Shown one piece after another: positions 21,943-25,953 of a stretch of DNA of 64,000 bases. The DNA lies in the NCBI RefSeq assembly GCF_041886205.1, contig NZ_CP169029.1. One strand, 5' to 3'. Below the pieces are notes generated by a model. It was given only the letters and a program-made list of their open reading frames with translations. It made no database searches and had not been told where the DNA came from. The DNA is from Escherichia coli (GTDB taxonomy: Bacteria > Pseudomonadota > Gammaproteobacteria > Enterobacterales > Enterobacteriaceae). The position numbers and the translations under genes are program-made. The first letter of the stretch is position 1. Each line of letters opens with the position of its first letter.

Positions 21943-23029
21943 GATTGCCAATATCAAGAAGTCTTTTGGTCGCACCCAGGTGCTGAATGATATCTCACTG
22001 GATATTCCTTCTGGTCAGATGGTCGCGCTGCTGGGGCCGTCCGGTTCCGGAAAAACCACGCTGCTGCGCATTATTGCCGGGCTGGAGCATCAAACCAGCG
22101 GGCATATTCGCTTCCACGGTACCGACGTGAGCCGCCTGCACGCACGCGATCGTAAAGTCGGTTTCGTGTTCCAGCATTACGCGCTGTTCCGTCATATGAC
22201 GGTGTTCGACAATATCGCTTTTGGCCTGACGGTGCTGCCACGTCGCGAGCGCCCGAATGCCGCAGCCATCAAAGCGAAAGTGACAAAATTGCTGGAGATG
22301 GTCCAGCTTGCCCATCTGGCGGATCGTTATCCGGCACAGCTTTCCGGCGGCCAGAAACAGCGCGTGGCGCTGGCGCGCGCGCTGGCTGTTGAACCGCAAA
22401 TTCTCCTGCTTGATGAACCGTTTGGCGCGCTGGATGCGCAGGTGCGTAAAGAGCTGCGTCGCTGGCTGCGTCAACTGCATGAAGAGCTGAAATTCACCAG
22501 CGTGTTCGTGACCCACGACCAGGAAGAAGCGACCGAAGTAGCTGATCGTGTAGTGGTGATGAGCCAGGGCAATATCGAGCAGGCTGATGCGCCGGACCAG
22601 GTATGGCGCGAACCAGCGACCCGATTTGTGCTCGAATTTATGGGCGAAGTGAACCGCCTGCAGGGAACCATTCGCGGCGGGCAGTTCCATGTTGGCGCAC
22701 ATCGCTGGCCGCTGGGGTATACGCCTGCGTATCAGGGGCCGGTGGATCTCTTCCTGCGCCCGTGGGAAGTGGATATCAGCCGCCGTACCAGTCTCGATTC
22801 GCCGCTGCCGGTACAGGTACTGGAAGCCAGCCCGAAAGGTCATTACACCCAATTAGTCGTGCAGCCGCTGGGGTGGTACAACGAACCGCTGACGGTTGTG
22901 ATGCATGGCGACGATGCCCCGCAGCGTGGCGAGCGTTTATTCGTTGGTCTGCAACATGCGCGGCTGTATAACGGCGACGAGCGTATCGAAACCCGCGATG
23001 AGGAACTTGCTCTCGCACAAAGCGCCTGA
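21932..23029 (+). CDS. cysA: Sulfate/thiosulfate ABC transporter ATP-binding protein CysA
   Basis: 365 aa; Walker [10 protein letters not shown], signature LSGGQKQR; 11-nt overlap with cysW. Confidence 0.93.
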
Positions 23030-23050
23030 TAGGTTGAGTGAATGTTAAAC

Positions 23051-23083
23051 GCCCGGAGGCGCTTCCCGCGATCCGGGCTTTTT
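23051..23083 (+). terminator. Intrinsic terminator after cysA
   Basis: GC-rich hairpin GCCCGG...CCGGGC followed by TTTTT. Confidence 0.55.
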
Positions 23084-23100
23084 AATGGCAAGGTTTGTAA

Positions 23101-23140
23101 CCTGTAGACCTGATAAGACGCGCAAGCGTCGCATCAGGCA
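23101..23140. repeat. REP element between cysA and cysM
   Basis: Palindrome cctgtagacctgataagacgcg...cgtcgcatcaggca, typical REP. Confidence 0.8.
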
Positions 23141-23162
23141 ACACCACGTATGGATAGAGATC

Positions 23163-24074
23163 GTGAGTACATTAGAACAAACAATAGGCAATACGCCTCT
23201 GGTAAAGTTGCAGCGAATGGGGCCGAATAACGGCAGTGAAGTGTGGTTGAAACTGGAAGGCAATAACCCGGCAGGTTCGGTGAAAGATCGTGCGGCACTT
23301 TCGATGATCGTCGAGGCGGAAAAGCGCGGGGAAATTAAACCGGGTAATGTGTTAATCGAAGCCACCAGTGGTAACACCGGCATTGCGCTGGCAATGATTG
23401 CCGCGCTTAAAGGCTATCGCATGAAATTGCTGATGCCCGACAACATGAGCCAGGAACGCCGTGCGGCGATGCGTGCTTATGGTGCGGAACTGATTCTTGT
23501 CACCAAAGAGCAGGGCATGGAAGGTGCGCGCGATCTGGCGCTGGAGATGGCGAATCGTGGTGAAGGAAAGCTGCTCGATCAGTTCAATAATCCCGATAAC
23601 CCTTACGCCCATTACACCACCACCGGGCCGGAAATCTGGCAGCAGACTGGCGGGCGCATTACCCATTTTGTCTCCAGCATGGGAACAACCGGCACTATCA
23701 CCGGCGTGTCACGCTTTATGCGCGAACAATCCAAACCGGTGACCATTGTTGGCCTGCAGCCGGAAGAAGGCAGCAGTATTCCGGGCATTCGCCGCTGGCC
23801 TGCGGAATATCTGCCGGGGATTTTCAATGCTTCTCTGGTGGATGAGGTGCTGGATATTCATCAGCGCGATGCGGAAAACACCATGCGCGAACTGGCTGTG
23901 CGGGAAGGAATATTCTGTGGCGTCAGCTCCGGCGGCGCGGTTGCCGGAGCACTGCGGGTGGCAAAAGCTAACCCTGGTGCGGTGGTGGTAGCGATCATCT
24001 GCGATCGTGGCGATCGCTACCTTTCCACCGGGGTGTTTGGGGAAGAGCATTTTAGTCAGGGGGCGGGGATTTAA
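23163..24074 (+). CDS. cysM: Cysteine synthase B (O-acetylserine sulfhydrylase B) CysM
   Basis: ORF track 23085..24074; GTG at 23163 gives 303 aa starting (V)STLEQTIGNTPLVKL; PLP-enzyme motifs. Confidence 0.9.
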   Translation: MSTLEQTIGNTPLVKLQRMGPNNGSEVWLKLEGNNPAGSVKDRAALSMIVEAEKRGEIKPGNVLIEATSGNTGIALAMIAALKGYRMKLLMPDNMSQERRAAMRAYGAELILVTKEQGMEGARDLALEMANRGEGKLLDQFNNPDNPYAHYTTTGPEIWQQTGGRITHFVSSMGTTGTITGVSRFMREQSKPVTIVGLQPEEGSSIPGIRRWPAEYLPGIFNASLVDEVLDIHQRDAENTMRELAVREGIFCGVSSGGAVAGALRVAKANPGAVVVAIICDRGDRYLSTGVFGEEHFSQGAGI

Positions 24075-24076
24075 GA

Positions 24077-24445
24077 TTATTGCGCAGGCACTGTTTTATC
24101 CGTCTGCGCAATTAACGCATGTAAAAAAAGCTGTGCATTCTCATCGCTCTTACCGGGCATCTTCACGATATACGGCTTCCCGGTAATCGATGATGACGAA
24201 GCAACCTTGTCAATAAACTGCTCGGCAGTGTCAATGCGGTTACGGGTATTGCTGAGCTTCAGACGCAGGTGGGAAACCGCTTCATCGCAGGTATGTTCAT
24301 CGCCGTTGCGCACAAATATCAAATCCTTTTTCTGTGCTAATCCCTCCAGCATGGCGTTGATGCGGGCTTCTTCATGGGCAGTTAACTTCGCGTAAGCGGG
24401 GAGTGTCATTAGTAGTGTAATGACCAGACAAATGATTTTCTTCAT
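24077..24445 (-). CDS. yfeK: Secreted protein of unknown function YfeK
   Basis: 122 aa; N-terminal signal peptide; position between cysM and pdxK. Confidence 0.7.
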
Positions 24446-24470
24446 TGAATTACCTTATCCTTGTTTTGTG

Positions 24471-24536
<66 letters not shown>

Positions 24537-24549
24537 GAGAAAAAATTAA

Positions 24550-25401
24550 ATGAGTAGTTTGTTGTTGTTTAACGATAAGAGCAGGGCACTGCAGGCGGAT
24601 ATCGTCGCCGTGCAGTCGCAGGTAGTGTACGGCAGCGTAGGCAACAGCATTGCCGTGCCTGCTATCAAACAGAACGGCCTGAATGTCTTTGCCGTGCCGA
24701 CGGTATTGCTGAGCAATACGCCGCATTATGACACTTTCTACGGTGGTGCGATTCCGGATGAATGGTTTAGCGGCTATTTGCGTGCACTTCAGGAGCGTGA
24801 TGCGCTGCGCCAACTTCGTGCTGTAACCACGGGCTATATGGGAACGGCATCGCAAATCAAAATCCTTGCCGAGTGGCTGACTGCGCTACGCAAAGACCAT
24901 CCTGACCTATTGATCATGGTCGATCCGGTGATTGGCGATATTGATAGCGGAATTTATGTCAAACCTGACCTTCCCGAGGCGTATCGACAATATTTACTGC
25001 CGCTGGCGCAGGGAATTACCCCCAATATCTTTGAGCTGGAAATCCTGACCGGTAAAAATTGCCGCGATCTCGACAGTGCCATTGCTGCCGCAAAAAGTCT
25101 GCTTTCAGACACATTAAAATGGGTGGTGATTACCAGCGCCTCCGGTAATGAAGAAAATCAGGAGATGCAGGTTGTGGTGGTCACTGCCGACAGCGTGAAT
25201 GTCATTTCCCATTCACGGGTAAAAACCGACCTGAAAGGGACTGGCGACCTGTTTTGTGCTCAGCTTATCAGTGGTTTGCTGAAAGGGAAGGCATTAAACG
25301 ATGCGGTGCACCGCGCGGGGTTGCGCGTACTGGAAGTGATGCGCTACACCCAGCAGCATGAGAGCGATGAATTGATTTTGCCGCTGCTGGCGGAAGCATA
25401 A
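24550..25401 (+). CDS. pdxK: Pyridoxal/pyridoxine/pyridoxamine kinase PdxK
   Basis: 283 aa; recognised sequence. Confidence 0.9.
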
Positions 25402-25430
25402 AAAAATGGCGCCGATGGGCGCCATTTTTC
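25402..25430. terminator. Bidirectional intrinsic terminator between convergent pdxK and crr
   Basis: Perfect hairpin AAATGGCGCC-GATG-GGCGCCATTT flanked by A6 and T5. Confidence 0.75.
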
Positions 25431-25443
25431 ACTGCGGCAAGAA

Positions 25444-25953
25444 TTACTTCTTGATGCGGATAACCGGGGTTTCACCCACAGTCACGCTACCGGACAGTTT
25501 GATCAGTTCTTTGATTTCGTCCATGTTGGAGATAACAACCGGAGTCAGGGTAGACTTGGCTTTCTCTTCCAGCAGCGGCAGATCAAATTCAATGACAGTA
25601 TCGCCAACTTTCACGCGCTGACCTTCTTCAGCAATACGCTTGAAGCCTTCGCCTTTCAGTTCAACGGTGTCGATACCGAAGTGGACGAACAGTTCAACGC
25701 CGCTATCAGATTCGATAGAGAATGCGTGGTTGGTTTCAAAGATTTTACCAATGGTGCCGTCTACAGGCGCGACCATTTTGTTACCCGTTGGTTTGATAGC
25801 AATACCATCACCAACGATTTTTTCCGCAAAAACGACATCCGGCACGTCTTCGATATTGACGATCTCGCCAGAGAGCGGAGCAATGATCTCAATAGTTCCG
25901 GTATCCTTCTTGTCGTCGGAAACCAGAGATTTCAGTTTATCGAACAAACCCAT
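25444..25953 (-). CDS. crr: PTS glucose-specific EIIA component (EIIA-Glc) Crr
   Basis: 169 aa; recognised sequence. Confidence 0.97.

Follow-up and report, generated by a model that had tools for sequence, protein, structure and literature searches.

The 2-bp junction between cysM and yfeK in Escherichia coli is probably ancestral, and the yfeS gene of K-12 an acquired insertion

The genes cysM and yfeK of Escherichia coli converge. In the stretch of DNA analysed here (the window, 64 kb in length), they lie within the E. coli neighbourhood cysPUWAM / yfeK / pdxK / crr / ptsI, and only two base pairs separate their stop codons (Table 1). This tight junction had been read in the first-pass annotation from stop codons at 24074 and 24077, and both the sequence and the list of open reading frames (ORFs) bear it out. 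E. coli PT62 has an identical sequence and the same RefSeq annotation, with a cysM of 912 bp and a yfeK of 369 bp placed 2 bp apart. On the basis of the PT62 annotation, cysM probably starts at the GTG at 23163 rather than at the ATG at 23085 given in the ORF list. Over 24 kb, E. coli strain wlxctx60 matches the window at 100% identity. No more than 9 of the 5426 complete genomes of E. coli are at least 99% identical to the window over that length, so that it appears to come from a lineage that is uncommon in the species.

Table 1. Features at and around the cysM-yfeK junction (window coordinates)
Feature	Position	Strand	Description	Source
cysM	23163..24074	+	cysteine synthase B, 303 aa; last gene of cysPUWAM	ORF list, PT62 RefSeq annotation
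cysM stop codon	24072..24074	+	TAA	
Spacer between convergent stop codons	24075..24076		GA, 2 bp	sequence, ORF list
Empty insertion site	24075..24082		GATTATTG (= CAATAATC in yfeK sense), 8 bp	K-12 BLASTN, boundary inspection
yfeK stop codon	24077..24079	-	TAA (plus-strand coordinates)	
Inverted repeat	24079..24112		ATTGCGCAG (24079-24087) and CTGCGCAAT (24104-24112), inside the last 12 yfeK codons	
A7 run	24122..24128		A6G in most strains	
yfeK	24445..24077	-	122 aa, DUF5329 family	ORF list
Putative sigma-E-type promoter motif	24479..24506	-	GAAACTT-N16-TCAAA, upstream of yfeK	motif search
pdxK	24550..25401	+	conserved flank, far side of yfeK	
pdxK/crr bidirectional terminator	25399..25430		AAAAAAATGGCGCC-GATG-GGCGCCATTTTT	

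In E. coli K-12 MG1655, the order of genes is pdxK, yfeK, yfeS, cysM (the last three being b2419-b2421). The flanking genes, their order and their orientation (ptsI-crr-pdxK-yfeK ... cysM-cysA) are those of the window, and both flanks align with it at 97% DNA identity; at the protein level, CysM is 98.7% and YfeK 95% identical between the two. The difference lies in the interval itself: 955 bp separate the yfeK and cysM stop codons in K-12, compared with 2 bp in the window, and they contain two REP elements and yfeS, which encodes a WGR-domain protein of 244 amino acids. The gene of about 244 codons that the first-pass annotation placed between yfeK and cysM in K-12 is thus indeed there, and the same annotation was right that yfeS is absent here. 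The alignment of the two intervals contains no shared 2-bp junction, and in pairwise BLASTN it breaks between the cysM stop codon and the CGCAGG of the yfeK tail. When K-12 YfeS is compared with the whole 64-kb window by TBLASTN, no match is better than E = 2.3, and BLASTN with the K-12 yfeS segment finds nothing in the window but REP copies at other positions; by neither search was yfeS (Pfam family PF05406) found within the 64 kb, either as an open or as a degraded frame. Relocation of yfeS within the window is ruled out, the matches being to REP sequences only.

Read in the sense of yfeK, the empty allele is ...GTGCCTGCG-CAATAATC-TTAAATCCCC..., and the K-12 allele is ...GTGCCTGCG-GAAGGAAATTAATCC-GCTTTGG...(Shine-Dalgarno, yfeS, two REPs)...GATGCT-ATTAATCC-TTAAATCCCC.... 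In K-12, about 955 bp replace CAATAATC, which comprises the last codon, the stop codon and the spacer of yfeK; the edges of this empty site are ambiguous by a few bases. The segment brings three new yfeK codons with a stop codon, a Shine-Dalgarno region, yfeS and the REP pair. YfeK of K-12 has 124 residues and ends ...KTVPAEGN-stop, whereas that of the window has 122 and ends ...KTVPAQ-stop, and the tails EGN-stop and Q-stop distinguish the yfeS-carrying from the empty allele. An 8-bp direct repeat, ATTAATCC, is found at both edges of the yfeS segment in K-12, in E. coli EC0026B and in a metagenome-assembled genome (MAG) of Pseudocitrobacter; the chance expectation for an 8-mer shared between two 50-nt neighbourhoods is roughly 3%. 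This repeat could be a target duplication, a microhomology, or what is left, in diverged form, of the original stop region of yfeK. The sole ORF of the segment is yfeS, with its WGR domain and no transposase domain, and no terminal inverted repeats link the two ends, the only palindromes being those of the internal REP elements. A reading of the segment as a MITE, an insertion sequence or an integron cassette was rejected, as it has no terminal inverted repeats and, on inspection, no core sites of the GTTRRRY type at its edges.

The contiguous 72-bp junction without yfeS is present in 4024 of the 5426 complete E. coli genomes (74%), and the K-12-type 955-bp segment, covered to at least 80%, in 1381 (25.5%); on these counts, K-12 represents the minority state. 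The first-pass annotation had proposed a clean presence/absence polymorphism of yfeS. The polymorphism is confirmed, but it is not an entirely clean one, with about 955 bp standing in place of 8 bp. The genomes that carry yfeS fall into two allele classes: about 1220 are at least 99% identical to K-12, and about 180 reach 95-99% identity, among them EC0026B with a yfeS gene 97.3% identical to that of K-12. The remaining few genomes include cases of IS1 in yfeS and of IS150 in yfeK; a partial match in strain H30, considered as a third type of junction, proved to be IS150 inside the yfeK of a yfeS-carrying strain. The tight junction occurs in O157:H7, O145:H28 and O111:H8 strains, a uropathogenic strain (UPEC) and an O18 strain, and yfeS occurs in K-12 derivatives and in HS. 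REL606 is without the contiguous junction (its match ends at the end of cysM), as expected if it carries yfeS, and it is absent from the yfeS match tables.

The architecture of the window is identical to that of most RefSeq E. coli (PT62, H14, O157:H7 and O145:H28 among them), and its differences from other tight-junction strains are point substitutions only. PT62 is 100% identical over 1 kb, and 136 of the 4024 tight-junction genomes are at least 99% identical over the 72 bp. One such substitution is the run of seven A residues in yfeK, which gives Leu instead of the Pro encoded in most strains. Since thousands of public genomes already carry annotations of the two arrangements, the difference amounts to known, ordinary accessory-gene variation. 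The finding matters little beyond bookkeeping.

The polarity of the change can be judged from an outgroup scan with YfeK as the query, in which 22 loci were gathered at one genome per species (E. fergusonii, Salmonella and Klebsiella are not among them), annotated by TBLASTN and inspected at the junction. Escherichia sp. L005, whose cysM is about 90% identical in DNA to that of K-12, has a 2-bp junction, the tail ...KTVPAQ-stop and the GA spacer of the window and of other E. coli. Pseudocitrobacter faecalis likewise has a 2-bp junction and a PAQ-stop tail, with GT instead of GA as the spacer. The gap between the two genes is 1 bp in Enterobacteriaceae UBA5654 and 31-32 bp in Citrobacter amalonaticus and a Superficieibacter species, and in Escherichia sp. 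E1V33 the genes overlap by 12 bp. Outside E. coli, yfeS was found at only one of the 22 loci, that of the uncultured Pseudocitrobacter MAG, where the site, the boundaries and the new YfeK tail (...PAEGN-stop) are the same as in K-12.

The composition and divergence of yfeS set it apart from its surroundings. Its G+C content is 39%, compared with 46% for yfeK and 56% for cysM (46-57% across the flanks). Between K-12 and the Pseudocitrobacter MAG, yfeS DNA is 95.9% identical, whereas the flanking yfeK and cysM are 80.5% and 89.6% identical, and in a sliding-window plot of the two genomes the block of 96-100% identity coincides with yfeS. YfeS homologues within the enterobacterial cluster are at least 89% identical; the next relatives are at most 65% identical and come, where a source is named, from Paenibacillus, Lysinibacillus, Clostridium, Dysgonomonas and Bacteroidota. 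The low G+C content, the discordant divergence and the patchy phyletic distribution indicate that yfeS was acquired. It is likely that an enterobacterial lineage gained yfeS through horizontal transfer, and that homologous recombination in the flanks, which are conserved, then exchanged occupied and empty alleles between strains, and even between genera. Two possible vehicles were examined and rejected: the single apparent 'plasmid' copy from E. coli, 70% identical (NZ_CP098226.1), proved to be the chromosomal ptsI-cysA region in a copy full of frameshifts, and the phage matches are weak and from Listeria.

The outgroups, the composition and the discordant divergence together make it very probable that the ancestral state is the 2-bp junction and that yfeS was inserted by horizontal acquisition. 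The opposite course is improbable: the ancestor of this strain, or that of E. coli, would have carried yfeS and lost it by a clean deletion that left the 2-bp junction. The 8-bp direct repeat could in principle mediate such a loss, and the 2.7% difference among the yfeS-carrying alleles of E. coli means that the occupied allele is not of very recent origin. Collapse of the repeat, however, would leave ...GCGGAAGGAAATTAATCCTTAAAT... and an EGN-stop tail, and no such sequence is found: the 78-nt collapse product is absent from the 5426 E. coli genomes, in which full-length matches reach at most 91% identity and represent the ordinary junction with a gap, and an exact-pattern scan of metagenome contigs for an empty site of the EGN-stop type gave one unrelated match, with no YfeK or CysM. 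The window instead has GCGCAATAATCTTAAAT, with the tail Q-stop, identical in kind to two outgroup genera. Low G+C content, patchy distribution and an identity of 95.9% between genera, against 80-90% in the flanks, likewise favour acquisition over loss.

With acquisition as the preferred reading, the window would show two convergent core genes in an uninterrupted arrangement that is probably ancestral. The tight junction is no strain-specific deletion, apparently nothing has been lost here, and the polarity seems to be the reverse of the K-12-centred view, the K-12 allele being derived and the allele of the window common. It follows for annotation that K-12 is not the reference state for yfeK-cysM, and that a missing yfeS should not be called a deletion when annotation is transferred. 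The explanation in full, an ancestral empty site, an acquired yfeS, exchange of alleles and a yfeK that forms a single-gene unit, is very likely to hold.

The same junction houses other cargo in other species. In Escherichia albertii, an insert of 1.8 kb holds two low-complexity ORFs on the cysM strand; in Citrobacter sedlakii, one of 3.8 kb holds ORFs of 628 and 654 amino acids, the latter with TPR-like matches; and in Superficieibacter electus, one of 0.5 kb holds a SnoaL-like/DUF4440 ORF. Each of these three inserts alters the last 2-5 residues of YfeK and ends at the cysM stop codon. The PADLOC models of defence systems match neither YfeS, nor YfeK, nor any of the five other cargo ORFs, and the idea that the junction carries anti-phage defence cargo was rejected for lack of a PADLOC match.

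Four unrelated cargos at one junction, counting yfeS, raise the question of a dedicated integration hotspot, in which cassettes would be inserted in a hairpin- or sequence-specific manner at the yfeK tail and the window would be an unoccupied target. The left breakpoints fall within about 10 nt, in or beside an arm of the palindrome described below, and the yfeS segment has both the 8-bp direct repeat around it and REP elements at one end. Even so, such a hotspot is highly improbable: the yfeS segment has no integrase or transposase gene, terminal inverted repeats or attC-like core sites, the other cargos have no flanking direct repeats, and it is common for the DNA between core genes to vary. 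Where two conserved genes lie no more than 2 bp apart, any insertion that is tolerated would be confined by selection alone to the dispensable tail of YfeK, and for this reason the other cargos are not read as evidence of a dedicated mechanism. A narrower version, in which the palindrome is a preferred target of hairpin- or single-strand-dependent insertion, possibly linked to REP elements, deserves hardly any credence. Were it true, insertion targeted to a hairpin would explain both the 8-bp repeat and the independent cargos in E. albertii, C. sedlakii and S. electus, and the window would be a naive target site.

The palindrome in question is an inverted repeat inside the 3' coding end of yfeK, where the first-pass annotation had placed it, and its arms form nine perfect pairs (five of them G-C), or 11 with two G-U pairs in plus-strand RNA. 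The loop is between 12 nt (plus strand, with the G-U pairs) and 16 nt. A hairpin is possible on either strand, with folding energies of -16.3 kcal/mol for the plus strand and -13.5 kcal/mol for the minus strand. In a context of 46-47 nt, it folds better than shuffled sequences (z = -3.8 plus, -3.1 minus), whereas in a context of 76 nt it is no better than the shuffles (z = -0.6 and -0.9). A single 9-bp inverted repeat is unremarkable in itself, since about six perfect ones with a spacer of 3-20 nt are expected by chance per 64 kb, as calculated from first-order Markov (base-transition-matched) random sequences; 43 overlapping 9-mer matches were observed.

The arms of the repeat consist of the codons ATT-GCG-CAG (Ile-Ala-Gln) and CCT-GCG-CAA-TAA (Pro-Ala-Gln-stop). 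The repeat is kept in four other E. coli and in P. faecalis, contains a single mismatch in Escherichia sp. L005, and is missing from E1V33 and UBA5654. Intact in the window, it is degraded in K-12, because the boundary of the insertion cuts the second arm; the K-12 hairpin is down to 5-7 pairs, with -12.4 (plus) and -10.6 kcal/mol (minus). A palindrome that is conserved, and weaker in the yfeS-carrying allele, could have some role at the 3' end of yfeK. The conservation of the arms can be attributed to coding constraint, given their two Ala-Gln codon pairs, and the palindrome is probably a by-product of the yfeK codons that would form at most a 3' hairpin.

It had also been proposed that this repeat could act as the terminator of cysM, a proposal that does not hold up well. 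Such a function, whether for cysM alone or bidirectionally for cysM and yfeK, would fit a stable hairpin that beats the shuffles in the shorter context, that E. coli and P. faecalis have conserved, that is weaker in K-12 than in the empty allele, and that sits exactly where termination is needed. Of the features of an intrinsic terminator, however, the repeat has the G+C-rich stem but neither the short loop nor the 3' run of U residues: its loop exceeds the usual 3-8 nt, and neither strand has a U-tract, the plus strand continuing UUAACGCAUGUAAAAAAAG and the minus strand AAUAAUCUUAAAUCCCC (taken 3' of the stem for the U-run, UUAACGCAUG and AAUAAUCUUAAAUCC, respectively). A scan with a terminator consensus makes no call here, although it also misses the clear pdxK/crr terminator. 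The failure to fold better than shuffles in the longer context, the sufficiency of coding constraint to explain the arms, and the lack of the repeat in E1V33 and UBA5654 despite equally tight junctions add to the case against, and a functional terminator at this position seems unlikely.

The pdxK/crr terminator of the same window offers a comparison, as it is likewise a palindrome where two convergent genes meet. It is intergenic, with a 12-bp repeat arm whose G+C-rich core, GGCGCC, pairs over a loop of 4 nt, and with tracts of A and T beside it; the cysM/yfeK palindrome, in contrast, is part of coding sequence, its loop is long, and it has no T tracts. An Rfam scan of positions 22500-25600 for known RNAs gave only a sub-threshold match to the REP-derived naRNA4, at 23108-23140.

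Since the 2 bp between the stop codons cannot accommodate a terminator, the cysM and yfeK transcripts would have to overlap at their 3' ends. Termination at the junction is most likely Rho-dependent or inefficient. The RNA 3' of the yfeK stop codon, which is antisense to cysM, contains 39% C and 18% G in its first 100 nt, and such a C-rich, G-poor composition would suit the loading of Rho. The junction is a natural case of convergent genes without room for a terminator, and as such can be used for studies of overlapping transcript 3' ends.

In K-12, yfeK and yfeS are reported to form one operon of the sigma-E regulon (PMC2685091, PMC11502571). The motif upstream of yfeK in the window was scored as agreeing with the sigma-E consensus used here (-35 GGAACTT and -10 TCNAA, about 16 nt apart), and the stretch is identical in K-12; judged by this consensus, it is a putative sigma-E promoter of yfeK. 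In the empty allele, yfeK would thus be a single-gene transcription unit of the sigma-E type and not the first gene of yfeKS, and the 'yfeKS operon' of K-12 would correspond to a yfeK-only unit in most E. coli. Over-expressed yfeK arrests growth, whereas over-expressed yfeS does not (PMC2685091), and a yfeS deletion mutant of K-12 is sensitive to boric acid (PMC11502571). Phenotypes of yfeS such as the latter concern an accessory gene that is missing from three quarters of strains. YfeK itself matches the Pfam family PF17263 (DUF5329) with E = 2e-31 and 108.6 bits (cut-off 27) over positions 2-94 of the 95 in the model, and on inspection its N-terminus looks like a signal peptide.

The yfeS segment is flanked by an 8-bp direct repeat, ATTAATCC, in all three of the yfeS+ alleles examined, those of K-12 (L003), a Pseudocitrobacter MAG (L007) and EC0026B (L026). 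These alleles show no terminal inverted repeats at the segment, and neither E. coli genomes nor a pattern scan of metagenomes gave a match to the collapsed form of the ATTAATCC site. The junction between yfeK and cysM also receives other cargo: the insertions in E. albertii, Citrobacter sedlakii and Superficieibacter electus are mutually unrelated, and each ends at the cysM stop and alters the C-terminal few residues of YfeK (see table).

The PLSDB record NZ_CP098226.1 (L033), 50 kb long and labelled as an E. coli plasmid, duplicates the chromosomal ptsI-crr-pdxK-yfeK-yfeS-cysM-cysA region and is riddled with frameshifts there. An artefact of assembly or sequencing, not a plasmid-borne yfeS, is the probable explanation. 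In Escherichia sp. E1V33, where the cysM stop is TGA, the convergent yfeK and cysM frames share 12 bp, a junction even tighter than that of the window.

Locations of the features described, in the window or in the related locus named
Feature	Locus	Coordinates	Description
Direct repeat ATTAATCC, K-12 copies	L003	2713-2720 and 3665-3672	8 bp
E. albertii cargo	L011	4331-6149	yfeK/cysM junction; two ORFs, 280 and 175 aa
Citrobacter sedlakii cargo	L013	4364-8182	yfeK/cysM junction; ORFs of 628 and 654 aa, the latter TPR-like
Superficieibacter electus cargo	L009	4376-4891	yfeK/cysM junction; one SnoaL-like ORF, 140 aa
yfeK/cysM overlap, E1V33	L004	1417-1428	
REP element	window	23108-23140	cysA-cysM spacer; partial match to Rfam naRNA4 (REP-derived)
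C-rich, G-poor predicted RNA	window	23675-24076	minus strand
Inverted repeat GGTAGCGATC ... GATCGCTACC	window	23987-24021	cysM 3' end; perfect, 10 bp
yfeK A7 run	window	24122-24128	antisense view
Bidirectional terminator AAAAAAATGGCGCC-GATG-GGCGCCATTTTT	window	25399-25430	between the convergent genes pdxK and crr, which lie 42 bp apart

The element between pdxK and crr is a textbook bidirectional terminator; its A/T tracts merge into the stem, which is why the consensus terminator scan does not call it. Beyond the yfeK stop, the predicted RNA, antisense to the cysM 3' end, would be C-rich and G-poor over ∼270 nt (its first 100 nt contain 39% C and 18% G); Rho loading sites are associated with a composition of this kind. 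The inverted repeat within cysM lies ∼50 nt upstream of its stop codon. The naRNA4 match of the REP element is sub-threshold, scoring 34 bits where the gathering cut-off is 59.5.

The E. coli lineage of the window is rare: only nine of 5426 complete genomes reach at least 99% identity over its positions 12000-36000 (24 kb), the remainder being at ∼98.4% or less, and one strain from an Asiatic black bear, wlxctx60, is identical (100%) over this interval. The A7 run in yfeK, which is A6G in most E. coli, gives Leu (AQLFL) in the window's YfeK in place of Pro (AQPFL), and the annotation of E. coli strain 138 places a frameshift in yfeK at the same homopolymer.
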